From: Clostridia bacterium
GTDB lineage: Bacteria > Bacillota > Clostridia > Christensenellales > CAG-1252
Direction of reading: 5' to 3'
Length of the DNA stretch: 64,000 bases
Assembly (NCBI GenBank): GCA_024685775.1
Contig: JAIKVL010000016.1
Coordinates: forward strand, 40,128 to 104,127
Shown: one piece after another, positions 3,899-54,317 of the stretch
How positions within the stretch are numbered: position 1 is the first letter of the stretch
Layout: each line of letters opens with the position of its first letter
Made by a program: the position numbers and the translations under genes
The notes under the pieces: model-generated
Databases searched by the model: none
What the model saw: the letters and a program-made list of their open reading frames with translations, nothing else
Told to the model about the DNA's origin: nothing

Positions 3899-5284
3899 TT
3901 ATCTGTATCGCCGATGCGTCTCGTAATAGAAGTGCTTATCGGCGAACATCCTTTCATCCGCGAGATGCATCGCCGTCGGAACGTCGATCTTTTCTCCGAC
4001 GATCGCGACGCCGACCGCGAAATGCAGGTGCTCCGCCTTATCGGCTTCCGCATACAATTGCTTTACGCGCGCTTCGGATTCTTCTTTTTTCATTCCCGGC
4101 GCCAAGATCACGAATTCGTCGCCGCCCACGCGGAAAACGCTCGCTTCGGGGAACGTTTTGCAAAGGATCGACGCCGCGGTTTGCAAGAGCCGATCTCCCG
4201 CCTTATGCCCCATCGTGTCGTTGACCCATTTCAAGCCGTTCAGATCAGCGAAGACCACCGAACAGGGTTCGGTCAATTTCGTTTTCCCGGAATCGATGTC
4301 GCTCAATAATTCGTTCATCGAATTGCGGTTTTTTACTCCCGTCAGCATATCCGTCGAACTCATCAATTCCAGCTTTTGCAAAAGCAGGTAATTGGAGATC
4401 TCGGAAGCGATAAAAAACGTCGCAAGTTCGAGCGTTTCTTTGATCATGACGGTGTTTTCGATATTAAAGTTCGTCGCCCAAATATAACCGAGCGTTTCGT
4501 TGTTATAGTCAAGCGGGAACAGGACGATGCTTTTGATCCCCGACGCGACCAAAGACGCGCGCCAGATCGGGTTGACCGATCCGAGCCAGTTCATATCCTG
4601 CCGGTCTTTTACGATGACGCAGGTGCTGTCTCCGATCGTTTCTTTCCAAGTCTTGACCATTTCGAACGTTCTATCGTTCATATAGTGCTTGAAAGAGATT
4701 AACTTGCTCCCCGGTTTTACGGCGTCGTAAAGAAGATCGCATTTTTCGGTCTGCTCGTCGGCAAGTAAGACGCCGCAATCATCCGAATCGCAGATTTTGC
4801 GGATATCTTCGACGACCTCGTAAAACTTGCTCTTATCGTTTCCGGATTCCCTGAGCCTGATGCAGGTTCGCAAGACCGCGGAAGCAGTGTCGGCGGAAAG
4901 GCTCGTCCGTTGCTCGGAATCCTCGTACGGCGTAACCTCGTAAGAATACGCGCAATAGCCGACGTTTTCCACGTCCGATTTCAGCGGAAGCAAGATCATA
5001 TTCAGCCAAAGATTCATTTGCGGAAGCCTGACGTACGAATGCAGGTTTTGCCCTCGGATCGCCGCGCGATAACAGTAATCTTCGAAGTTTTTATTCGTCG
5101 GAAAATAGTTTTCATAGGGCGAATTCGGAAGAAAGGGATGCCCCATCGTAAGGAGCATATCGTCGTAATGCGCCTTATTTCCGTCCACGATGCGGATATT
5201 CCCGTAATCGCCGTTCGGGAAAACTTCCACCGACATAATACACGTCTTGTTTTCGTATGCGGAAAGCACTGCGCTGAAATCCAT
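3899..5284 (-). CDS. cytoplasmic diguanylate cyclase (N-terminal sensor-like region plus GGDEF)
   Basis: The C-terminus reads LTGVKNRNSMNE...FADLNGLKWVNDTMGHKAGD...FRVGGDEFVIL. The track start at 5329 is a TTG. ATG 5284 has a perfect AAGGAG 6 nt upstream. Confidence 0.85.
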   Translation of the reverse strand: MDFSAVLSAYENKTCIMSVEVFPNGDYGNIRIVDGNKAHYDDMLLTMGHPFLPNSPYENYFPTNKNFEDYCYRAAIRGQNLHSYVRLPQMNLWLNMILLPLKSDVENVGYCAYSYEVTPYEDSEQRTSLSADTASAVLRTCIRLRESGNDKSKFYEVVEDIRKICDSDDCGVLLADEQTEKCDLLYDAVKPGSKLISFKHYMNDRTFEMVKTWKETIGDSTCVIVKDRQDMNWLGSVNPIWRASLVASGIKSIVLFPLDYNNETLGYIWATNFNIENTVMIKETLELATFFIASEISNYLLLQKLELMSSTDMLTGVKNRNSMNELLSDIDSGKTKLTEPCSVVFADLNGLKWVNDTMGHKAGDRLLQTAASILCKTFPEASVFRVGGDEFVILAPGMKKEESEARVKQLYAEADKAEHLHFAVGVAIVGEKIDVPTAMHLADERMFADKHFYYETHRRYR

Positions 5285-5329
5285 GTTTTTCTCCTTTTCT
5301 TCGGGTTTCTTATCGAACCGCTTTTCCAA

Positions 5330-8177
5330 ATATATTTTTATTATAAATATTTAGATGTGACAAAACTGTTACAAATCCTCGAAGGGAAGGAAAAAAGTTC
5401 ATTACAATGATAACTCCGTAGATCCTAATTCGCCTCTTTCCGTTATTACGTTCTGCAATCCGCTATTTCAACAAATTTTGCAAAAAAGCAATAATCCTTT
5501 CTTTCTCATTGCTTTCATTTGTTTTCAACCGCAGTAACGGTATTCCCGCTTTTTCCAAAATGCAATCTTTCTTTGCGTCTCTCTCCGTTTGCGCCTTTTG
5601 CTGTTCGTGGAAAGAAACGCCATCGACCTCTATTACGCCCAAAGGCTTCTTGCTCATTTTATTATAAATTAAAAAATCAGCATGACTGTTGGGGTTGTTT
5701 AAGAATCTATTCTCTTCAGCAGATAACACCGAATGATCCAATTTGACAAATTCTTTAAGCGACACATGCATTGCATATCTTAGGTTATTGAAGCCTGAGG
5801 CTATTATTTCCCCGATCAAAACTTTTGTAATGTTTTCCGTGTCATAATCTTTAGAAGGATATTTCTTTTTAAACCGAGCTAACGCTTCTTGGTATTCTTC
5901 ATATAAAAGATCATAGACAGAGCGAACCGTTCCTTCTTCCACATGACCGAAATCTCCATGATAAGATATATAACCGACCAGATCCGAGAGAACTCCGGTT
6001 TTTGATTTTGCAGCTTTATCGGAAGTAACGAGAATAAAGCGATCCGTTGCCCTTGATACTGCGACATTTATTAAGTTTTCATTGTTCACAAAATCATTCG
6101 TATCATTTACAACGCTTGAAAAAATTATCGTCTTCTTTTCTCGCCCTTGGAATTTATGAATCGTACTTGCATCCACCTTGTCTCCCAGTTGCGCTTGAAT
6201 CAATTCTGCCTGATATGCATACGGCGTAATTACGCCGATATCCGATAAATCCGTTTCCTCAACGATCTTTTTTATTTCGTCGATCTCTCTCTGATTATAA
6301 AGCCCTGACCCATAAGGATTCTTTCTGGCAAAATTACCCTGAACGGTTTTTACTACCGTCATAGTCTTTGGATCAGCACTTTTTTCTTTATAAACGATCA
6401 ATTCGTTGTTATAAAACTCTTCGTTACAAAAGTTAATAATATTCGGATCGCATCTATAGTGTTCTTTCAATAATTGTTTGGGAATTCGATTACCATAGAG
6501 CGAAAGGAAACTGCTCATAATGTTATTCCCATAATAGCTATACGCTTGTTTCACATTATATTTCCGAAGCAAATCGCTATTGCGCTCCTTAAAACTCTCG
6601 TCATCAATTTGCGGCAACTGTTTTGTATCTCCGACAACTACAATGTTCTTAGCCATTTGCATAGACAATAAAGCGCTTGCCATATTGACCTGTGAAGACT
6701 CATCGACTATAAGATAATCAAACAAATAACCTTTTTGGCTACATTTTGCCAGCGAATAAGTCGAACTCAAAACCACAGGATAATCGCTTAGGAAATCATT
6801 GAATAACTTTTTGTAGTTATTCTCCTCATAGACCCGGTTTTGCCTTTTCATATAGAGTCTCACTAATTTGTTTGTAAAAAAAACCTGTGATAAGGAAATC
6901 AACTCTTTTACTCTTTCTGAAACAGATTGATTTTCCAGTTTTCTATTTAATACTTTGATACGATTGCTCAATTTATTATTTTTGGATATATAATACAAAT
7001 ATTCAAGAATCTGCAATACGTCCGAAGATTTCGTCACAAGCATTCTTTTTGTTATACCCAACCTGATTGCAACAAGCATTCTTTTCAAAAAGCCTATCTT
7101 CTTCTTTTCTTTCAGTTTTACAATCAAGTCCATTATAAACTCAGGACTTATCGCTTTTTTTCTGTAATACTTTTGAAATTTTGATATATCTTTGTCTTGC
7201 AAAAAATGTTTTAATTCAAGTATTGTAGCGTTTTGTTTTTCTATCTCTTTTTTTATTTCATTTTCTATCTCGCAATACAACGGCAAATCATTGAACAGCT
7301 CTCTTAATCTCCATTCATCCACTTGCTTTTCTTCCAATTTCGGCACATCGCTTTTATATTCACAAAAGAATTTGGTTACGTTTTCAGCATTTCCAAGCGG
7401 CGCCGCAATAAAAGAATACCCGTACTTCTCCAGTTTTTCATATACATTGTTTGTTGCGGAATTATTATTCGATACTACAGCCACACTCTTCCCTCTGATG
7501 ACTGCATTACTGATAATATTTAGTATTGTTTGAGTTTTTCCCGTCCCGGGCGGACCCTCAATAATAGCCATTCTGTTTTCAAACACTCTTTTCAAGGCTT
7601 CCATCTGACTTTCATTTAAGCCAAATGGACAAATCATTGGAATTCTTTCAGTCTGCTCGATTCTCCCCAATGCTCCTTGTAAATACAATGCTAAAACGCT
7701 GTTTTCATTCACATAACTAAGATTTTCGAATTGTGAAACCAAAAAGACATCTTCTTCGCTTTTACAAGTTTCTTTCACGACATCCCGATAATATGAAATT
7801 ATTTTTGATGCAGAAATATCTTTTTTTAGGAAATCCTTAACAACCTCAATTTCCTCTTTCCACGCTATACTTGTAAACCCCGAGCTATAGAATATTTTGT
7901 AAATCTTGTCATTAAATAGAATCAGTTTGGTGACGTTCGTGCATGGCGAATGCTTAAATATAATATTTGCAAATTCAACATTTTTCGGAGAATCAAATAC
8001 CCTCATTTTCCGAAATGAAACATAAACAGGATGATTAGACCCTGAAAAAACAACCCGCCATGCTTTTTCATCCCGCTCATACCAATAAACATTATCCGTA
8101 GCATCAAACCAAGAATCCTTCTTAGTTGAATAAAAATAAATAAGTACTTGATTCGGATTCATACAATCAACTTTAGA
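5330..8177. other. low-GC compositional islet containing a single gene
   Basis: By eye the segment is strongly A+T-rich (for example 5331-5420 and 7141-7260). Both flanks (<5284 and >8178) are G+C-rich with GC-ending codons. The transitions coincide with gene boundaries. Confidence 0.65.
5463..8162 (-). CDS. SF1B (UPF1/DNA2-like, AAA_11/AAA_12-type) helicase with C-terminal DUF2726-type nuclease-fold domain and an unassigned N-terminal domain
   Basis: 899 aa with an ATG at 8162. Helicase motifs: Walker A GPPGTGKT (nt 7533-7556), DESSQV, VVVGDTKQLPQI, KEHYRCDPNIINF, TIHKFQGREKKTIIFS and NVAVSRATDRFILV. A K/E-rich insertion sits between Walker A and motif II. The C-terminus reads HADFLIYNKMSKKPLGVIEVDGVSFHEQQKAQTERDAKKDCILEKAGIPLLRL, which fits the DUF2726 / PD-(D/E)xK-like pattern. 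I recognise nothing in the first ~170 aa. Confidence 0.85.
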   Translation of the reverse strand: MNPNQVLIYFYSTKKDSWFDATDNVYWYERDEKAWRVVFSGSNHPVYVSFRKMRVFDSPKNVEFANIIFKHSPCTNVTKLILFNDKIYKIFYSSGFTSIAWKEEIEVVKDFLKKDISASKIISYYRDVVKETCKSEEDVFLVSQFENLSYVNENSVLALYLQGALGRIEQTERIPMICPFGLNESQMEALKRVFENRMAIIEGPPGTGKTQTILNIISNAVIRGKSVAVVSNNNSATNNVYEKLEKYGYSFIAAPLGNAENVTKFFCEYKSDVPKLEEKQVDEWRLRELFNDLPLYCEIENEIKKEIEKQNATILELKHFLQDKDISKFQKYYRKKAISPEFIMDLIVKLKEKKKIGFLKRMLVAIRLGITKRMLVTKSSDVLQILEYLYYISKNNKLSNRIKVLNRKLENQSVSERVKELISLSQVFFTNKLVRLYMKRQNRVYEENNYKKLFNDFLSDYPVVLSSTYSLAKCSQKGYLFDYLIVDESSQVNMASALLSMQMAKNIVVVGDTKQLPQIDDESFKERNSDLLRKYNVKQAYSYYGNNIMSSFLSLYGNRIPKQLLKEHYRCDPNIINFCNEEFYNNELIVYKEKSADPKTMTVVKTVQGNFARKNPYGSGLYNQREIDEIKKIVEETDLSDIGVITPYAYQAELIQAQLGDKVDASTIHKFQGREKKTIIFSSVVNDTNDFVNNENLINVAVSRATDRFILVTSDKAAKSKTGVLSDLVGYISYHGDFGHVEEGTVRSVYDLLYEEYQEALARFKKKYPSKDYDTENITKVLIGEIIASGFNNLRYAMHVSLKEFVKLDHSVLSAEENRFLNNPNSHADFLIYNKMSKKPLGVIEVDGVSFHEQQKAQTERDAKKDCILEKAGIPLLRLKTNESNEKERIIAFLQNLLK

Positions 8178-12068: not shown

Positions 12069-15000
12069 TTATTTCTTGCGCTCTTTGATCTCCACGTTCT
12101 CCGGGCCGAAGACTCCGTACAGCTCGGCGATCAGGCTGTCGCTGTCCGCGACGGTTCGCTCGAAGAGATAGTACTTGCCCGCAATATTCATATAGAGTTG
12201 CACGCCGCCTTTATAGGCGCTCGTGATGCGGTCGAGTTTTTGATACGCCGCCTGATATTCGTTCGGAAGACGGACGACGAAGACGACGTTTCTCGCGGGC
12301 TTTTCCTGCGCCGCGGGCTGCGCTTCGCTCTTTTCCGCCGCTTGCCACGGGCGAACGGAACGAAGATTCAACGTGTATTTTCCGTCGCGATCTTTCAAGA
12401 CACCGTCCGCAAGGACGATGTTTCCGTTTTTGATGAGGTCTTTGCAACGGGAAAACGTTCCGCCGTAGGCGACCGCTTCGATGATCCCGTCGAGATCCTG
12501 CACTTTCAAGATCGCCATTTCGTTGCCGCTCTTATCGACCTTTTTAACGACGTCGATCAGCATACCCGCCGCCGTCACCTGCTCGCCGTCCAGCGATTTG
12601 ACTTCGACGACGGAGTCTTCGTTTTGCTGCGCTTCGAGGTAAGCCTCCTCGGCTTCGGCGACTTGCGCGGTCGAGAAAGAGATCGACTTATACCCTTCCC
12701 TGTAATCTTCGAGCGGATGCCCGGAGAGATACAAAGAGAAGACTTCGAACTCGTTTTCGAGGATCTGCTTTCTCGGGAGTTCGGGCATCTTTACGAGATC
12801 CGCGTCCACGTTCAGATCCTCGATCTCGTCGAACAGCGAGAACTGCCCGGACATCTTGCGCTTATTGTCCTCGGCGGTCGCGGACATCACTTGCTCGTAA
12901 TTCGCGAGCAAGGTCGCGCGGTTCTCCCCGAGGCAATCGAACGCGCCCGCTTTGATCAGGTTTTCGACCATCGCGCGGTTCGGCATCGAACTTTGACGGC
13001 GGAAGAAATCGGAAAGGCTCTTATATTTCCCGCCCCGTTTTCTCTCTTCGACGACATGGCGCGCCGCGTCCTCGCCGACCGCCTTGACGGCGACCAAGCC
13101 GAAACGGACGGAGGTCCCGTTCGTCGTAAAGAAGACGTCGCCTTCGTTGATATCGGGTTTCAGGACGTCGACGCCCTTGGTGCGAAGATAGGTAACGTAC
13201 TTCGCGACTTCTTTGATATTCGTGATACGGTCGTTGATAACGGCGGTAATGAATTCGGGCGTGTAGTACTTTTTCAAATACGCCGTTTCGTAAGAAAGGA
13301 CGGCGTAAGCCGCAGCGTGCGATTTGTTGAACGCATACTTCGCGAAATCCGCCATATCGTCGAACAGTTTGGTCGCGACTTCTTCCGAAACGCCGCGCTT
13401 CAACGCGCCTTCGACGGCGGTCAACTTCTTTTTTACGTTCTCGGGCGAACCGTGGAAAAAGATCTTCTTCTGCTCGTCCATCAGTTTCGCTTTCTTCTTG
13501 CTCATGATACGGCGCAGAATATCGGCGCGACCGTAACTGTATCCCGCGATCTCGCGCGCGATCTGCATGACCTGCTCTTGATAGACCAAGCAACCGTAGG
13601 TCATTTCGAGGATCGGGCGCAAGCGTTCGTCCAAATAGACGATCTTATCGGGGTTGTTTTTATTTTCGAGGTACTTCGGAATACTGCTCATCGGACCCGG
13701 GCGATAGAGAGAAATCCCTGCGATGATATCTTCGAGCGAGGTCGGGCGAAGCTGAGTCATAAAGCGTTTCATCCCGCCTTGTTCGAGTTGGAACACCGAG
13801 TCGGTGTCGCCCGACGCAATCAGCTTATAAACCTCGGGGTTATCGTAACCGAGTTTATGAAAATCGATGTCCACGCCGTGATTTTCCTTGATGTAGATTT
13901 TGGCTTTATTGACGTCCGTCAGCGTAACGAGACCCAAAAAGTCCATTTTAAGCATTCCGAGTTCTTCGACTTGGTCTTTCGGGTACTGCGTCGTTACGAC
14001 TTCGCCGTTTCTTTGAAGCGGGACGAAATCGCCGACGATCTCTTTACAGATGACGACGCCCGCCGCGTGCATACCCGTGTTTCTCGGCATTCCCTCGACT
14101 TTGAGCGCCATATCGAGGACTTTGCGGATCGTCGGGTCGCTTTCATAGAGTTGGATCACGTCCGGGCTTTTCTGCTCGACGTGTTTTTCATCCCTGCCGA
14201 GAATGCCTTTGATGCTCATTTTGCCATTCGCTTCGGGAAGCATTTTTACGAGTTTATCGACGTCCGCATAGGGCACGCGATAAACGCGCGCGACGTCCTT
14301 AATCGCCTGCTTCGCCGCAAGCGTTCCGAACGTTATGATCCTCGTGACGCGCTCCGCGCCGTACTTTTCGCGGACGTACTGAATGACGTTTTCGCGCCCT
14401 TCCATGCAGAAATCGATATCGAAGTCGGGGTTCGAGACTCTTTCGACGTTCAGGAAACGCTCGAAAATCAAGTTAAAGCGCAAAGGATCGACGTTCGTTA
14501 TTCCGATCGCATAGGCGATGATACTGCCGACGCCGCTTCCGCGCCCCGCTCCGACGGGGATCCCGTGTCGGCGTGCGTAATCGATAAAGTCCCAAACGAT
14601 CAAATAGTACTCCGCGAAGCCCATTTTGATGATGACGGAAAGCTCGTACTCCATTCTCTCTTTGATCTCGTCCGTGATCACGGGATAACGACGAACGATG
14701 CCCTCGTAAGCAAGGCGCCTGAGATATTCCGCGGGGGTCTCGCCCGTCGGGGGGACGTAAGGCGGGAGCAACGGCAAATGGAACTTGATCTCGACGTTAC
14801 ATTTATTCGCGATCTCGATCGTGTTATCAAGCGCTTCGGGAACGTTCGGGAAGAGTTCTTCCATCTCCTCGGCGGTCTTGAAATAATAGTAAGGTCCGTT
14901 CATTCGCATACGGACTTCGTCGTCGATATAGCGCGCCGTTCCGATACAAATCAAAACGTCCTGCATTTCCGCGTCCTCTTTTTCGATATAGTGGACGTCG

Positions 15001-49282: not shown

Positions 49283-50517
49283 TGTTCCTCCAAATAGATC
49301 GAGACGTCCCCTTTCAACAAGGACTTGTCGATCTCAACGTTTTGCATTTCGCCCGGCGCCATGACCGCCGTCTTTTTCCGCTTGACGACCTCGCCCGCGG
49401 AAGCGACCGCGACGGCGCGCCCCTTATATACTTTATCGACGCGGAAATAGATTTTAACCTTCCCTTCTCCCGCCGTTACGATTTGCGGAAGCGCGTAACG
49501 GACGCCGCCCGACGGTTCGACCTTGAATTTTTCCCCGCTCGGCAGTTCCCCAAGCGCGAACGCAGCCGCGGAGTCGCCCGCGATCAAGGCTTCCTCGCTG
49601 ACGTTATCCACGAGATCGTGGACGTGAAGGACGTTGCCCGCCGAGAAGACGCCGAGGAGCGAAGTCTGACGAAATTCGTCCACAACCGCGCCTTTGGTGA
49701 TCGGGCTGATTTTGACGGACGTTCCCTTCAAAAGATCGTTTTCCGGAATCAATCCGACGGAGAGGAGCAAGGTATCGCACGGGATGAATTCCTCTTTCGA
49801 GAGATCGGGGCGAAGCCTTTCGTCCACGGGAGCGATATAGACGCCCGTCAAACGCGCCTTCCCTTCGACCCTCGTTACGGTCGTCGAGTAACGCAAAGGA
49901 ATGTCGAAATCGTTCAGGCATTGAACGATATTTCGCTTTAAGCCGCTCGAAAAAGGCATAATCTCCATAACGAGCTTGACTTTCGCGCCCTCCGCGGTCA
50001 TACGGCGCGCCATAATAAGCCCGATATCGCCGCTGCCGAGGATGACGACCTCTTTTCCGACGAGGCAACCCGCGACGTTTGACAAACGCTGCGCCGCGCC
50101 CGCGGTATAGATCCCCGCGGGTCTGGTTCCCGCAAGGGCGATCGCGCCCGCGCTCCGCTCTCTGCACCCCATCGCGAGGACGATGGCTTTCGCTTTGATC
50201 TCCATATATCCTTCGGTCGGAGAGATCGCGCGAACGACCTTGTCTTCCGAAAGAGATAAGACCATCGCTTCGAGGAAGACTTTGATCCCCTCGTCCGCGA
50301 GGACTTGCTTTTTGAAACGAGCCGCATATTCGGGTCCCGTCAATTCTTCGCCGAAATAGTGAAGCCCGAAGCCGTTATGAATGCATTGATTCAAAATGCC
50401 GCCGAGCCGATTGTCGCGCTCCAAGATCGCGACAGAAACGCCTTTTTTTCTCGCGCCGATCGCCGCCGCCATTCCCGCGGGACCGCCGCCTATGATCACC
50501 ACGTCAAATTCCGTCAT
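49279..50517 (-). CDS. NAD(P)/FAD-dependent pyridine nucleotide-disulfide oxidoreductase family protein
   Basis: It has two dinucleotide folds, FDVVIIGGGPAGMAAA and VVILGSGDIGLIMA. Confidence 0.8.
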   Translation of the reverse strand: MTEFDVVIIGGGPAGMAAAIGARKKGVSVAILERDNRLGGILNQCIHNGFGLHYFGEELTGPEYAARFKKQVLADEGIKVFLEAMVLSLSEDKVVRAISPTEGYMEIKAKAIVLAMGCRERSAGAIALAGTRPAGIYTAGAAQRLSNVAGCLVGKEVVILGSGDIGLIMARRMTAEGAKVKLVMEIMPFSSGLKRNIVQCLNDFDIPLRYSTTVTRVEGKARLTGVYIAPVDERLRPDLSKEEFIPCDTLLLSVGLIPENDLLKGTSVKISPITKGAVVDEFRQTSLLGVFSAGNVLHVHDLVDNVSEEALIAGDSAAAFALGELPSGEKFKVEPSGGVRYALPQIVTAGEGKVKIYFRVDKVYKGRAVAVASAGEVVKRKKTAVMAPGEMQNVEIDKSLLKGDVSIYLEEQ

Positions 50518-51949
50518 ATCCGTCTTTCACCTCATAGGGCGCGATCTCGCTGCCCTCGTCCCCTTTTCGGATCGCCGTCAAAGGGAGATTGAATTCGCTT
50601 GCCAAAATCTCCATTACGCGGGGCATACAGAAGCCGCCCTGACAGCGCCCCATCCCCGCGCGAACGCGGCGTTTTACGGCGTCCACCGTGCGCGCCGGAA
50701 CGGGCGAACGGATCGCGCCGAGGATCTCGCCTTCCGTAACCTTTTCGCAGCGGCAGACGATCCTTCCGAACGCGGGATCTTCCTTCGCCTTTTTCGCGAT
50801 CTCTTCGGGAGAAGCGGTCGCCAAGCGGAATTTTACGGGGAGAGAAAGGAGTTTTTCTTTCTTTTTGAGATCGAGCTTTTTCGCCGCCCACGCCGCGACG
50901 TGTTCTCCGATCGCGGGAGCGGAAGTCAGCCCGGGCGAGCAAATGCCCGCGAGAATAAAGTAGCCGGGGAAACGCTCGGATTCCTCGACGATAAAATCCG
51001 ATCCGACCGACGTGCGCGTTCCCGCGTACACGCGGATGGTCTCTCCGATCCTGACGTTTTGCATCAGTCGATTCACGCCCTCGCGAACGAGCGCGAGCCC
51101 CTCCGCCGTTACGGCGTTCTCTTCCGCCTTATCCGAGGGAAGGCGGCGCGAAGTCGGCCCCAAAATGACGTTTCCGTCCGCGGTCGGCGCGACGAGGATT
51201 CCCTTTCCTTTTTCGTCCGGAAGAGGGAAAACGACGGTGTTTACGACGCCCGCCTGCGCGCTGTCCAAGATATAATAGTCGCCGGCGGCGTAAACTTGTT
51301 CGTAGGTCTTTTCGCCGAGGAGCGCGTTGACGTCGCTTGCGCCCGCGCCCGCCGCGTTGACGACGGTCTTTCCGAAGTACTCGCCTTTATTCGTCCGAAC
51401 GACGAAGCCGCCGTCCGATTTTTCCAAAGAAACGACCTTCTCTTCGAGGCGAACGGTCGCCCCGTTCAGCGCCGCGAAATCGCCCTGCGCGATGGTCAGT
51501 TTGTACGGCGAGACGACGCCCGCGTCGGGCGCGTACAAAGCGTAAGTGATCTCGGGGGAGATATTCGGTTCGAGCTTGCGGATCTCGTCCTTCGAAAGGA
51601 TCCGCGCGTTTACGCCGTTCTTTTTCGCGCGCTCTTCGAGGACGCGAAGCCCTTCGAGCCCGCCCTCTCTCGCCGCGACCAAAGAACCCGTCCTTTTATA
51701 AGGGACGTGCAGTTCTTCCGCGACGGATGGCATCATCGCCGCGCCGAGGACGTTGAAGTACGCCTTTTTCGTCCCGGGTTCCGCGTCGTAGCCCGCGTGC
51801 GCGATGCCGCTGTTCGCGCGACTCGACCCGTTTGAAAGATCGGATGCCTTTTCGAGAAGAAGGGTCTTCGCTTCAAAGGAAGCAAGGCTCTTCAAAACGG
51901 CGGTGCCGATCACGCCGCCGCCGATAACGATAACGTCAAAAGAATTCAT
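50504..51949 (-). CDS. FAD-dependent glycerol-3-phosphate dehydrogenase-like oxidoreductase with BFD-like [2Fe-2S] domain
   Basis: Trimmed to ATG 51949 (MNSFDVIVIGGGVIGTAV), because the track start would overlap ppa. The C-terminus reads CRCEKVTEGEILGAI...RAGMGRCQGGFC. Confidence 0.8.
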   Translation of the reverse strand: MNSFDVIVIGGGVIGTAVLKSLASFEAKTLLLEKASDLSNGSSRANSGIAHAGYDAEPGTKKAYFNVLGAAMMPSVAEELHVPYKRTGSLVAAREGGLEGLRVLEERAKKNGVNARILSKDEIRKLEPNISPEITYALYAPDAGVVSPYKLTIAQGDFAALNGATVRLEEKVVSLEKSDGGFVVRTNKGEYFGKTVVNAAGAGASDVNALLGEKTYEQVYAAGDYYILDSAQAGVVNTVVFPLPDEKGKGILVAPTADGNVILGPTSRRLPSDKAEENAVTAEGLALVREGVNRLMQNVRIGETIRVYAGTRTSVGSDFIVEESERFPGYFILAGICSPGLTSAPAIGEHVAAWAAKKLDLKKKEKLLSLPVKFRLATASPEEIAKKAKEDPAFGRIVCRCEKVTEGEILGAIRSPVPARTVDAVKRRVRAGMGRCQGGFCMPRVMEILASEFNLPLTAIRKGDEGSEIAPYEVKDGYDGI

Positions 51950-51963
51950 AACTGCCTGCCGAT

Positions 51964-52509
51964 TTAATCCTGAAAAGTATTTTGCGGGAATTTTTTCCAA
52001 TAAAGGTCGATCGCCTCTTTGATGATTTCAATCGCGCGATCTCTGCCGAGGATCTCCATGACCGTCGTTTCTTTATGTTCGAGCTGCTTATACACGTTAA
52101 AGAAGTGGGCGATCTCCTGAACGATATGCGGAGGAAGCTCGCCGACTTCGTGATAGGTGTTATAGGTCGGATCGTGGAAGGGGACTGCGATGATCTTATA
52201 ATCGAACGCGCCGCCGTCTATCATCGCCATAACGCCGATCGGATAGCACTCCACGAGCGCGAGAGGCGCGATCTGCTCGCTGCAAAGGACCAAGACGTCC
52301 AAGGGGTCTTTATCATCCGCATAGGTCAGAGGAATAAAGCCGTAATTCGCGGGATAGTGCGTGGACGTATAAAGGACTCTGTCCAAAATAAGCGCGCCGG
52401 ATTCTTTATCCAGTTCGTACTTATTTTTGCTTCCTTTGCTGATCTCGATGACCGCGAGGAAGTCGTGCGGGCTGATGCGGTTCGGATTGATATCACGCCA
52501 TAGATTCAT
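51964..52509 (-). CDS. ppa: inorganic pyrophosphatase (family I)
   Basis: The motifs are EISKGSKNKYELD and YPANYGFIPLTYADDKDPLDVLVL. GGAGG lies upstream. Confidence 0.9.
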   Translation of the reverse strand: MNLWRDINPNRISPHDFLAVIEISKGSKNKYELDKESGALILDRVLYTSTHYPANYGFIPLTYADDKDPLDVLVLCSEQIAPLALVECYPIGVMAMIDGGAFDYKIIAVPFHDPTYNTYHEVGELPPHIVQEIAHFFNVYKQLEHKETTVMEILGRDRAIEIIKEAIDLYWKKFPQNTFQD

Positions 52510-52618
52510 CGGAAAACCTCCAAAAAGCTATAATTATATATTCTATCACTCTATAACCCCTTTTTCAAGGGGAAAAGAAAAATCCGATCGCACTTTTTCG
52601 ATCGGATCTTTCGGAAAT

Positions 52619-53407
52619 TTACGCGCTTTTCTTTTTGCCGCATTTTTTGCGGACGAGAACCCAAACGAGATAAAACGCCGCGACGTACAAAAGAAACAAA
52701 ACGACGACTTCCAACGGGTATAAAACGCGATTCCCCTTGACGAGATTATAAAAGATATCGTAAGGCGTTCCGTCGCCGCGCATCAGAAACATATAGTTAT
52801 ACGGAATCAAAATATCGGCGACGTAGGCGATCGCGCAGCACCCGACGAGGATCAGGAAGGTGATCCAAATATTTCTCTTTTGCATGCTCGCCATCCCCGC
52901 GATCGCGATATAGAGCCCCGCGAACCCGCCGAGCGAATGCGTGATCGCGGAAAAGACGTTGTCATAGGAAAGAACGGGATACGAGGAGAAATTCTGCCCC
53001 GCGGCGTAGACGCCCATCGCCGCGCCGAGCGTCCCGAAGATCAAGACGAAGTCCAAAGCGGCTTCCCTCACCCGCCCCTTCGAAAAAGCGGCGATCGGAA
53101 GCGCGAAAAACTGCAAATCACACATAAAGAGCGGGAGTTTCAAAAGCATCGGTTTCGCGTCGTGCGCGCGGAGAGCGCAGAAAGCGATGTCGCCGAGTTT
53201 CAGCAGGACGAACGCGATCGCGCAGACGACGACCACGCGATTTTTCTCGCGCTCGGGTTTCCCTTTTTCCTTTCGTCCGACGAGGATCGCAAGCGCGATC
53301 ATCGCGATCATAAACGCCGTCGCAAAGACGATATGCTGCCAAGACATATACCCTTCCGGCGTTCTTCGATATTCACCGATCCCGAAAAACTCTTTCAATC
53401 CGCTCAT
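52619..53407 (-). CDS. hypothetical polytopic membrane protein (possibly YwaF/TIGR02206-like)
   Basis: 262 aa with about 7 TM segments. The family suggestion is weak and from memory only. Confidence 0.5.
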   Translation of the reverse strand: MSGLKEFFGIGEYRRTPEGYMSWQHIVFATAFMIAMIALAILVGRKEKGKPEREKNRVVVVCAIAFVLLKLGDIAFCALRAHDAKPMLLKLPLFMCDLQFFALPIAAFSKGRVREAALDFVLIFGTLGAAMGVYAAGQNFSSYPVLSYDNVFSAITHSLGGFAGLYIAIAGMASMQKRNIWITFLILVGCCAIAYVADILIPYNYMFLMRGDGTPYDIFYNLVKGNRVLYPLEVVVLFLLYVAAFYLVWVLVRKKCGKKKSA

Positions 53408-53755: not shown

Positions 53756-53784
53756 TTGCAATTCCTTTTTCCCTGTGTTATAGT
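53756..53784 (+). promoter_or_regulatory. sigma-70-type promoter candidate for tRNA-Leu
   Basis: TTGCAA (53756-53761), a 17-nt spacer, then TATAGT (53779-53784). It ends 10 nt before the tRNA 5' end. Confidence 0.55.
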
Positions 53785-53794
53785 AATGTAGCAA

Positions 53795-53880
53795 GCCGAA
53801 GTGGTGGAATGGCAGACGCGATGGACTCAAAATCCATTGTTGGCGACAACGTGTGGGTTCAAGTCCCACCTTCGGCACCA
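53795..53880 (+). tRNA. tRNA-Leu (anticodon CAA), type II, CCA encoded
   Basis: Manual cloverleaf. The acceptor stem is GCCGAAG/CTTCGGC. The D stem is GTG/CGC. The anticodon stem ATGGA/TCCAT carries the loop CTCAAAA. The long variable arm is GTTG-GCGA-CAAC. The T arm is GTGGG-TTCAAGT-CCCAC. The 3' end is A-CCA. Confidence 0.9.
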
Positions 53881-53883
53881 GTG

Positions 53884-53910
53884 GCACTCGTTAAAGCGAG
53901 TGCTTTTTCT
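53884..53910 (+). terminator. intrinsic terminator after tRNA-Leu
   Basis: The stem GCACTCG (53884-53890) pairs with CGAGTGC (53897-53903). A T5 run follows. Confidence 0.6.
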
Positions 53911-54037
53911 TTATCTGCGTGGGACTTGAACGGGCGAAGTGCGTAGCAAGGAAGACACAGTGCGTCTTCCGCCTGAGCCCCGGCGTGTCGGCGAGCGATA
54001 GCGAGAGTGCGAGCAAGTCCCACCTTCGGCACCACAT

Positions 54038-54064
54038 GCATCCGCAAACGCGGATGCTTTTTCT
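54038..54064 (+). terminator. second terminator-like hairpin (after X2)
   Basis: The stem GCATCCGC (54038-54045) pairs with GCGGATGC (54050-54057). A T5 run follows. Its stem sequence differs from hairpin 1, but it occupies the same position relative to X and Y. Confidence 0.5.
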
Positions 54065-54264
54065 TTATCTGCGTGGGACTTGATCCGTGGGAAGCGCCGA
54101 CTTACAAACTTTGCTTTGCAGATAAGGCGGCGCCAAACGCGACGGAGCGTTTGCCACCCCGGCGAGAGATAGAAGTCCCACCTTCGGCACCGGTATAATT
54201 CAAATGCGATCCCACAAACCCTTGACTTTTTTTTCGAGAAGAGTTACGATATTTCCGAAAGGAC

Positions 54265-54302
54265 AAAGATGTCTTGGGGGTTACCCGAGGCGTCTTTTTT
54301 TT
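54265..54302 (+). terminator. intrinsic terminator/attenuator immediately upstream of purF
   Basis: GATGTCTTGGG (54268-54278) pairs with CCCGAGGCGTC (54284-54294). That is 11 bp including 3 G.U pairs, with the loop GGTTA. AAA lies upstream and T8 (54295-54302) lies downstream. The purF RBS GGAGGA is at 54309-54314. Confidence 0.6.
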
Positions 54303-54317
54303 GTTTTGGAGGAGAAT

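Follow-up and report, generated by a model that had tools for sequence, protein, structure and literature searches.

A tRNA-Leu gene of Clostridia is followed by repeated modules that look like a structured RNA family ending in copies of the tRNA 3' end

Results

Organisation of the tRNA-Leu locus

We studied a 64-kb stretch of contig JAIKVL010000016.1 from a Clostridia bacterium (assembly GCA_024685775.1), referred to here as the window. It carries a tRNA-Leu gene that is followed by two short modules, each ending in a copy of the tRNA's own 3' end, and these modules are the subject of this work. The tRNA-Leu(CAA) gene, with an encoded CCA, lies at 53795-53880 on the forward strand (ARAGORN; Rfam tRNA model, 57.2 bits), as do all elements of the array. 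A promoter-like site at 53756-53784 (TTGCAA, 17 nt, TATAGT, with TG ahead of the -10) precedes the gene and is the only such site upstream of the modules in the window. Relatives likewise have a TTGCAA...TATAGT/TATGAT arrangement upstream of tRNA-Leu.

The original prediction, made from the sequence alone, described the tRNA 3' end as present in triplicate, and we confirmed this. The final 21 nt of the gene (X1, 53860-53880) recur in full at 54014-54034 (X2), whilst a third copy of 19 nt, X3, lies at 54173-54191 and ends in ...CACCg. The 19-mer AAGTCCCACCTTCGGCACC occurs at exactly three sites in the 64 kb (53861, 54015 and 54173), compared to a mean of 0.02 in shuffled sequence, and no fourth copy of X was found in the window when three mismatches were tolerated. 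X1 and X2 are each followed by a terminator-like hairpin of differing sequence with a T5 run, again as described. The first hairpin (GGCACTCGT-TAAA-GCGAGTGCT) occupies 53883-53904 and extends to 53909 with its T-run, and the second (GCATCCGC-AAAC-GCGGATGC) occupies 54038-54057 and extends to 54062.

Both hairpins run into a 29-nt repeat, Y, which is identical in the two units (Y1, 53901-53929; Y2, 54055-54083), matches exactly two sites in the window and has no match in shuffles. Y1 consists of the terminator tail and a linker followed by the Y core GTGGGACTTGA (53919-53929, with complementarity to X reaching 53931); the core of Y2 is at 54073-54083. The expected complementarity between Y and the T-arm segment of X was recovered by a repeat finder as inverted repeats between X1 and Y1 (13 nt, 100%; 53857-53869 with 53919-53931), Y1 and X2 (10 nt) and X2 and Y2 (13 nt, 92%). 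The direct repeat is longer than X alone: 53853-53929 and 54007-54083 are 83% identical over their 77 nt. The two spacers, S1 and S2, showed no similarity when aligned to each other and each contains its own hairpin where one had been predicted. Because the spacers differ, Tandem Repeats Finder reported nothing on the array.

From 5' to 3', a module consists of the Y core, a structured spacer and X, with a terminator hairpin ahead of it. The Y core comprises the 5' strand of the T-stem (GTGGG) followed by ACTTGA(A), the reverse complement of the T-loop. X copies the last 18-21 nt of tRNA-Leu, from the 3' strand of the T-stem through that of the acceptor to ACCA. Across loci the spacers are approximately 50-170 nt long, branched and hairpin-rich, giving modules of 85-195 nt in repeat units of 150-190 bp. 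The window units are 154-158 bp and have no open reading frame (ORF) inside. A 20-codon candidate in spacer A of the window (GTG...TAG) was rejected because its stop reads CAG in loci L011 and L002 and its substitutions are stem-compensatory.

The first window module, type A, extends over 53919-54034 and has S1 at 53930-54013. S1 contains a long-range helix (GGGCG.AG/CTG.GCCC), the hairpin GGAAGAC/GTCTTCC and a purine-rich 3' segment. The second module, type B, extends over 54073-54191, with S2 between the Y core and X3. Its helices are GTGG/CCAC, GCGCCG/CGGCGC and AAACGC/GCGTTT, followed by a conserved unpaired segment, CGGCGAGAGATAGA.

The modules recur behind tRNA-Leu in other genomes

The architecture of the unit recurs in many genomes. 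Public collections were scanned for GTCCCACCTTCGGCACC followed, after a gap of 25-55 nt, by GTGGGACTTGA, the pattern being slightly relaxed for metagenomes. The scan returned 25 loci, from 15 species-representative genomes, nine metagenome contigs and one IMG/VR contig. The 15 genomes are metagenome-assembled genomes (MAGs) labelled Clostridia, Clostridiales, 'Christensenella sp.' or Candidatus Scatosoma. The layout is constant: tRNA-Leu, terminator hairpin, short linker, Y core, spacer, X and another hairpin, with the unit present one to three times per locus.

In all 25 loci the modules lie behind tRNA-Leu and on its strand, and each locus with a complete tRNA has a single tRNA-Leu. No module was found away from tRNA-Leu in the 64-kb window or in approximately 250 kb of sequence from the loci. 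A look-up of further relatives anchored on ppa, covering empty sites and additional loci, returned only loci without any tRNA-Leu, and a look-up of strain polymorphism through exact purF protein matches found nothing.

S1 and S2 of the window belong to different module types, and both types are conserved in other species. Type A was found in the window (S1), L002, L010, L011, L017 and L025. Type B was found in the window (S2) and in ten further copies in nine other loci, among them L002, L010, L011, L015, L016, L020, L024 and L025. A third type, C, is present in L005, L006, L008, L012, L013, L014 and L022 and, in truncated form, in L004 and L007, whilst L001, L003, L009 and L018 hold further spacer forms. 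The window, L002, L010, L011 and L025 share the order A-then-B, which is evidence for vertical inheritance of the modules. Whereas the original prediction drew the unit as X-hairpin-Y, the conserved part is the spacer together with its Y and X ends, and the hairpin is a terminator of drifting sequence.

On the IMG/VR contig (L001), phage DNA is followed by the 3' half of tRNA-Leu, after which come a hairpin, Y and, past a spacer of 51 nt, X and a terminator. The module is host flank lying outside the attR of a prophage and not phage DNA. The prophage end at 14397-14453 includes a tRNA-Leu 3' half that starts in the anticodon loop, a classical attR, and the variable arm of this tRNA-Leu differs from that of the window tRNA. 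This shows use of the tRNA as a phage attB at the anticodon-loop sublocation, independently of the modules.

Spacer conservation and RNA structure

Spacer conservation was compared with four-fold degenerate sites of neighbouring genes. At these sites the window shares 58-70% identity with L010, its closest relative, and 44-50% with L015, L016, L021 and L025. After removal of the tRNA-derived ends, spacer identity between the window and its relatives was 86-94% for type A and 73-81% for type B, whilst the flanks past the array could not be aligned. Spacer identity this far above the four-fold sites indicates purifying selection, or else very recent spread.

The spacers are also conserved in structure. 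For type C, a closing helix and four hairpins were scored. Standard pairs filled 98.7% of cells, compared to 87.4% in column shuffles and approximately 40% in slid controls. Compensatory double changes were found in 12 of 33 pairs, a level that none of 500 shuffles reached. In each of the ten copies of type C, complete and truncated alike, the first hairpin combines a covarying stem with a GNRA loop (GGGA or GAGA). GNRA loops are a feature of RNA. Type B showed four compensatory pairs, a number reached by 7 of 500 shuffles, with 97.7% of cells paired. Type A showed three, for example GGAAGAC/GTCTTCC, GGAAGGC/GCCTTCC and AAAAGGC/GCCTTTT, and its G-U pairs are numerous. Tallied over the type A, B and C alignments, G-U and A-C cells on the tRNA strand stand at about 18:4. 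This indicates that the folded strand is the tRNA strand, as the opposite strand would reverse the ratio.

A covariance model built on type B, R1, scored all type B copies at 112-142 bits (window module B: 123.5 bits, E = 2e-26) and matched the other module types at 17-30 bits via the shared ends. Its matches all lie behind tRNA-Leu on the tRNA strand, apart from one weak antisense match within module B (12.6 bits, E = 3.4), and there were none elsewhere in the window or in seven control loci. R1 also aligned the tRNA's own 28-nt T-arm and 3' end to both module ends with the interior deleted (16 bits), which supports a view of the module as the 3' quarter of tRNA-Leu in which a structured insert takes the place of the T-loop.

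A permissive Rfam search (E up to 10) of module types A-D from the window, L008 and L009 returned the tRNA only, with no other family near its gathering score. In line with a check set out in the original prediction, the spacers are not degenerate tRNAs: neither ARAGORN nor the Rfam tRNA model (E up to 10) found a tRNA in them. The T-box riboswitch was considered and rejected, since the T-box model of Rfam gave no hit to the modules. In type C, the 5' part of the module (L012 1925-1940, and others) reads AGGGUGGAGCCGCG, which is one base off the T-box consensus AGGGUGGNACCGCG; we take this resemblance to be coincidence. Taken together, the modules combine conservation above the neutral level, compensatory changes and strand-specific tolerance of G-U pairs, which are three of the four generic features of a conserved structured non-coding RNA, the fourth being a transcript.

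Folding of single sequences pairs Y with the first part of the next X over 7-10 bp and leaves the last 11 nt free. The ends also follow the neighbouring tRNA. L018 has a tRNA-Leu(CAG) with the T-loop TTCAAAT; its Y is GTGGGATTTGA and its X2 begins CAAATCCCAC, and since both match this differing T-arm, both track that tRNA. The left edge of X varies among loci (CAAGT.., GTCCC.. or TCCC..). L006 and L016 keep an intact X2, even though the hairpin that comes next has no relation to hairpin 1.

Terminators and array evolution

All 37 X-to-Y intervals in 26 loci fold as a hairpin of 8-17 pairs, in many different sequences, and 35 of them carry a U-run. A G+C-rich hairpin followed by a U-run is the form of an intrinsic (Rho-independent) terminator, and the hairpins after X are predicted to act as such. 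The original prediction treated their combination of divergent sequence and preserved structure as a puzzle; ordinary terminators, selected for function and not sequence, account for it.

X, terminator and linker together form a within-genome repeat of approximately 68 nt, without differences in L022 and with few in L014, L005 and L008. The linker before module A is different and longer in L002, L010, L011 and L025 than in the window. The complete identity of Y1 and Y2 is therefore real but not the puzzle it had seemed, as it reflects local homogenisation and these four relatives have another linker at that place. Arrays probably grow, shrink and homogenise by unequal recombination or gene conversion between X-terminator-Y repeats. 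Such gene conversion and unequal crossing-over would explain the partial distal units of L003, L008, L015 and L024, and likewise the decaying terminal X in the window (X3), L002, L010, L011, L017, L020 and L025.

Other repeats were seen near some arrays. At 1900-2140 of L016 there is a run of short variable hairpins spaced by a constant 7-8-nt word (ATATAAC/TTATATT). It ends in GGCGGCACCA and an exact second copy of the tRNA terminator hairpin, so that a repeat of approximately 38 nt brackets approximately 430 nt. Similar hairpin runs with the constant word GAAATCC/ATTTCAC lie just downstream of the arrays in L002 and L011.

Gene neighbourhood

The ten genes around the array, within approximately 6 kb, were assigned by Pfam. 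They are holA, a DUF1667 gene, two FAD oxidoreductase genes, a TMEM164-like membrane protein gene (the gene upstream of the array), purF, ABC-transporter genes, a weak alpha/beta-hydrolase-like ORF and one ORF without a Pfam match; ppa, which adjoins the array, was identified separately. Only housekeeping and transport families were found, with no recombinase or integrase among these ten genes. The original statement that the window lacks any integrase or phage gene thus holds for the ten genes scanned.

In most relatives (L010, L015, L016, L021 and L025 were compared), ppa and the FAD-oxidoreductase genes follow the array and share the strand of the tRNA. In the window (50504-53407) and L023 they lie upstream on the opposite strand, indicating that the segment with the tRNA and array was inverted relative to its neighbours at least once.

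It had also been suggested that the array is a multi-terminator leader reading into purF. This idea fails because purF adjoins the array in the window only, relatives having ppa or other genes there, and because purF has its own promoter-like site (54222-54250). Within 54222-54317, that site is followed by a 14-pair hairpin and long T-run (54265-54297) directly before the ribosome-binding site, possibly an attenuator-type leader. Rfam assigned no family to the purF leader, the best match being SAM-III at 15.6 bits (E = 3.2). TATAAT-like words just before Y in some type C loci were rejected as promoters, as they have no -35 and are too close to Y.

Elsewhere in the window, a low-GC stretch on the reverse strand (5463-8162; 34.6% against approximately 53%) contains an 899-aa ORF. 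By eye, its sequence resembles a superfamily-1 helicase with a C-terminal nuclease-like tail. L010 has a low-GC helicase-like gene directly after its array (approximately 4330-7050, reverse strand), the N-terminus of which resembles, again by eye, that of the window ORF. The last X of L010 is cut at the edge of this gene (GTCCCACCTTCG followed directly by ttt). The helicase-like ORF looks like a mobile accessory or defence-type gene.

Discussion

The modules are conserved, under selection, folded, biased towards one strand and linked to tRNA-Leu only. They have the appearance of a structured RNA family not described before, and not of scars left by phage integration, which bears out the original suspicion that decayed serial integrations do not explain the pattern: the modules are vertically conserved and structured, with spacer identity above four-fold sites. 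The structured RNA or tRNA-trailer alternative raised at that time is the better reading, given conserved and structured modules that match no phage or plasmid.

The explanation we consider most probable, though it is far from secure, is that the modules are read-through trailer RNAs that mimic the 3' quarter of tRNA-Leu. They would be transcribed on the tRNA strand from the tRNA promoter, by read-through of the tRNA terminator, and each module would have its own terminator. Y would pair with the start of the following X, so that a helix resembling the T-stem closes the folded spacer and the last 11 nt, CUUCGGC-ACCA, are left single-stranded. The resulting RNA would be a mimic of the 3' quarter of tRNA-Leu with a structured insert in place of the T-loop. 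It could present the tRNA-Leu 3' end to its readers, or pair with the 5' acceptor strand of the tRNA. We infer this transcription, the closing helix in preference to its alternative and any molecular function from comparison of the loci.

Several observations weigh against this explanation. Our promoter scan found no promoter-like site between the tRNA terminator and either window module, so expression would require transcription to pass terminators that appear to be good. Within a module type Y and X are almost invariant, and covariation therefore neither supports nor refutes the Y:X closing helix, whilst the full-length minimum-energy fold (53795-54200) prefers backward X1:Y1 and X2:Y2 pairings around the terminators. 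Both the Y:next-X and the previous-X:Y pairings are possible. In seven loci (L004, L007, L017, L019, L020, L021 and L023) every module is truncated or decayed, and degeneration of the terminal X is common. With many loci lacking an intact copy, the element appears dispensable in many lineages. Ascertainment by a pattern of X and Y core partly builds in the invariance of these words and the apparent lack of empty sites. The alignments are small, at 6-10 sequences each; repeat assembly in MAGs is unreliable, so copy numbers are not to be trusted, and L010 has an NN gap inside its array. High spacer identity amid saturated genomes could also stem from recent horizontal spread.

The backward pairings form the core of another RNA-based account, a cis-acting trailer corresponding to the relay of the original prediction, which is thermodynamically possible but which we regard as unlikely. 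Here Y would pair back with the tRNA T-loop and T-stem (13 bp), enclosing the terminator and unfolding the tRNA, and the next X would compete for it; the spacer would serve only as a timer or scaffold, and the role would be quality control or processing of read-through pre-tRNA-Leu. The minimum-energy fold uses these pairings over the cloverleaf (z = -4.9). In addition, Y retains CTTGA(AC), the complement of the T-loop, even in types B and C, where the next X offers GTCCCAC only. The distance from X to Y is 39 nt in most intervals, including that with the unrelated hairpin of L018, which has no U-run and at which read-through would be expected. Minimum-energy folds, however, disregard co-transcriptional order, and tRNAs fold and are processed fast. 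Internal modules keep the same Y though their upstream X lacks TCAAG, the invariance of Y is partly a product of the search pattern, and strong spacer conservation and elaborate structure are left unexplained.

Repeats of a tRNA 3' end are classically att sites, and the array can be read as gene-less miniature integrative elements resembling cis-mobilisable elements (CIME). Each [terminator-Y-S] would be a cargo-less attP inserted at the T-loop-to-CCA part of tRNA-Leu by a tyrosine integrase acting in trans, with tandem accretion and X as the att identity block. X does begin in or next to the T-loop and end exactly at CCA, like classic identity blocks, and as in an att array the direct repeat is the 3' part of the target tRNA, exact over 19-21 nt in X1-X3. 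tRNA-Leu(UUG) is a documented integration target (PMC6861422), and copies of a tRNA-like 3' end, arranged as tandem direct repeats, border the accreted islands of ssrA (PMC3146451). The prophage in L001 uses the same tRNA, copy number differs between loci, and the arrays are followed by variable DNA that is in many cases AT-rich and has accessory genes, the last X of L010 being cut at a low-GC gene. We nonetheless find this reading distinctly unlikely. There is no integrase among the ten genes around the window array and no distant X in the 64-kb window. Neither a distal X nor the 3' half of a spacer was found in the approximately 2-6 kb examined downstream of the truncated modules in L003, L004, L007, L015, L021 and L024, and spacer halves were never found apart in any locus. 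The comparison with phages proposed in the original prediction (blastn against phage and plasmid collections) gave no match, the lone IMG/VR match being host flank. Between the repeats, different species have orthologous DNA in a conserved order, not foreign DNA. In L022, L014, L005 and L008 the repeat takes in the host terminator and linker, pointing to in-situ duplication or conversion rather than a foreign attP. The left edge of X is inconsistent, excision circles would be 154 bp, and compensatory stems and a GNRA loop are not expected of integrase arm regions.

The array also recalls the attC sites of integrons, which are inverted repeats with conserved ends and a variable structured centre, and which separate unrelated short units in an array anchored at a fixed site. 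X-terminator-Y would then be an imperfect inverted repeat that recombines as folded single-stranded DNA, and the spacers would be ORF-less cassettes anchored at the tRNA. The conserved ends do flank a centre of varying sequence in which a hairpin is kept, the length (approximately 77 nt) is in the attC range, and successive 'cassettes' are unrelated. This reading is barely credible, as there is no integron-type integrase beside the tRNA, the ends GTTCAAGTCCCAC and GTGGGACTTGAAC do not fit the consensus RYYYAAC...GTTRRRY, and the centre is an ordinary terminator with a U-run. The 'cassettes' are moreover the conserved, structured and order-keeping part, the opposite of integron cassettes.

A non-functional by-product would have arisen as the tRNA 3' end and terminator were partly duplicated in tandem and drifted neutrally, or would consist of decayed tRNA pseudogenes. 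Variable copy number, truncated distal units and degenerate terminal X copies are in line with this, and the near-identity of within-genome repeats suggests ongoing duplication or conversion. This very improbable reading is largely refuted by spacers far above four-fold-site identity with compensatory changes, and by the absence of any tRNA in the spacers by ARAGORN or the Rfam tRNA model. Its second version, in which the array is a multi-terminator purF leader, meets the adjacency seen in the window only and purF's own promoter-like site and leader hairpin. Two further candidates were rejected. A MITE (miniature inverted-repeat transposable element) or other transposon-derived repeat would fit the Y/X inverted repeat, but the flanks are not duplicated and, in the 64-kb window and approximately 250 kb of loci, copies occur only behind tRNA-Leu. 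An invertible DNA switch does not fit spacer motifs that are all in tRNA orientation, in 21 loci with motifs, a small sample in which a flipped X1-Y would escape the search pattern.

If the modules are RNAs with a T-stem-like closing helix, they have partial likenesses among known systems. In E. coli, the 3'ETS-leuZ small RNA sponge is a short trailer that precedes the terminator and has no tRNA mimicry. Like it, the predicted module RNA would be a non-coding RNA from the 3' flank of tRNA-Leu driven by the tRNA promoter; unlike it, the modules lie beyond the terminator, are 85-195 nt long, branched and repeated, and end in a copy of the tRNA 3' end. The tRNA-like domain of tmRNA, viral tRNA-like structures, acceptor/T-arm minihelices and external guide sequences of RNase P offer another comparison. 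With these the modules would share a T-stem-like helix followed by the acceptor 3' strand and ACCA and, with tmRNA, the pairing of 5' and 3' ends of a long RNA around a large structured insert. They differ in having no 5' acceptor strand in cis, so that the acceptor 3' strand is unpaired, and no T-loop. They give no match to the tRNA and tmRNA models of Rfam, and the element adjoins and copies its parent tRNA.

The likeness to tRNA and tmRNA att repeats, such as those of ICEMh1 and ICEPmu1 in tRNA-Leu (PMC6861422) and of the Dehalococcoides ssrA islands (PMC3146451), lies in tandem T-loop-to-CCA copies downstream of an intact tRNA and in a hotspot of variable DNA. By contrast, the modules are gene-less and only 150-190 bp, with no integrase in the ten nearest window genes and no distal X in the DNA examined from the loci; the DNA between their X copies is conserved across species and structured, and the repeat often takes in the host terminator. 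Integron arrays share inverted-repeat ends, a centre kept in structure, unrelated units and one fixed anchor with the modules, which differ in lacking IntI by the ten-gene scan, in not matching the R''/R' consensus, in 'cassettes' conserved in order and in a centre that is a terminator. Literature searches on repeated tRNA 3' ends, T-loop inverted repeats and tRNA mimics found only classical att-site accounts.

The geometry of external guide sequences suggests, by analogy, a more specific role for tRNA-Leu mimics, which we consider improbable. Trans-acting 'quarter-tRNA' RNAs might pair with GCCGAAG-containing RNAs, whether the 5' acceptor strand of tRNA-Leu or other transcripts, and recruit RNase P or the CCA-adding or aminoacylation machinery, or they might complement damaged tRNA-Leu as a split tRNA. 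If true, this would be a natural, genome-encoded system of tRNA-end mimics that has a structured, fast-evolving effector domain of its own.

Repeats of a tRNA 3' end are routinely taken as island boundaries, which in this case would give a conserved host element the wrong annotation. Should the modules be RNAs, they would represent a new tRNA-linked structured RNA family in Christensenellales-like gut Clostridia, with ends that are copied from and track the neighbouring tRNA-Leu and interiors that evolve as several distinct folds. This architecture is unlike known tRNA trailers, tRNA-like structures and att scars, and suggests a role tied to the tRNA 3' end or T-arm.

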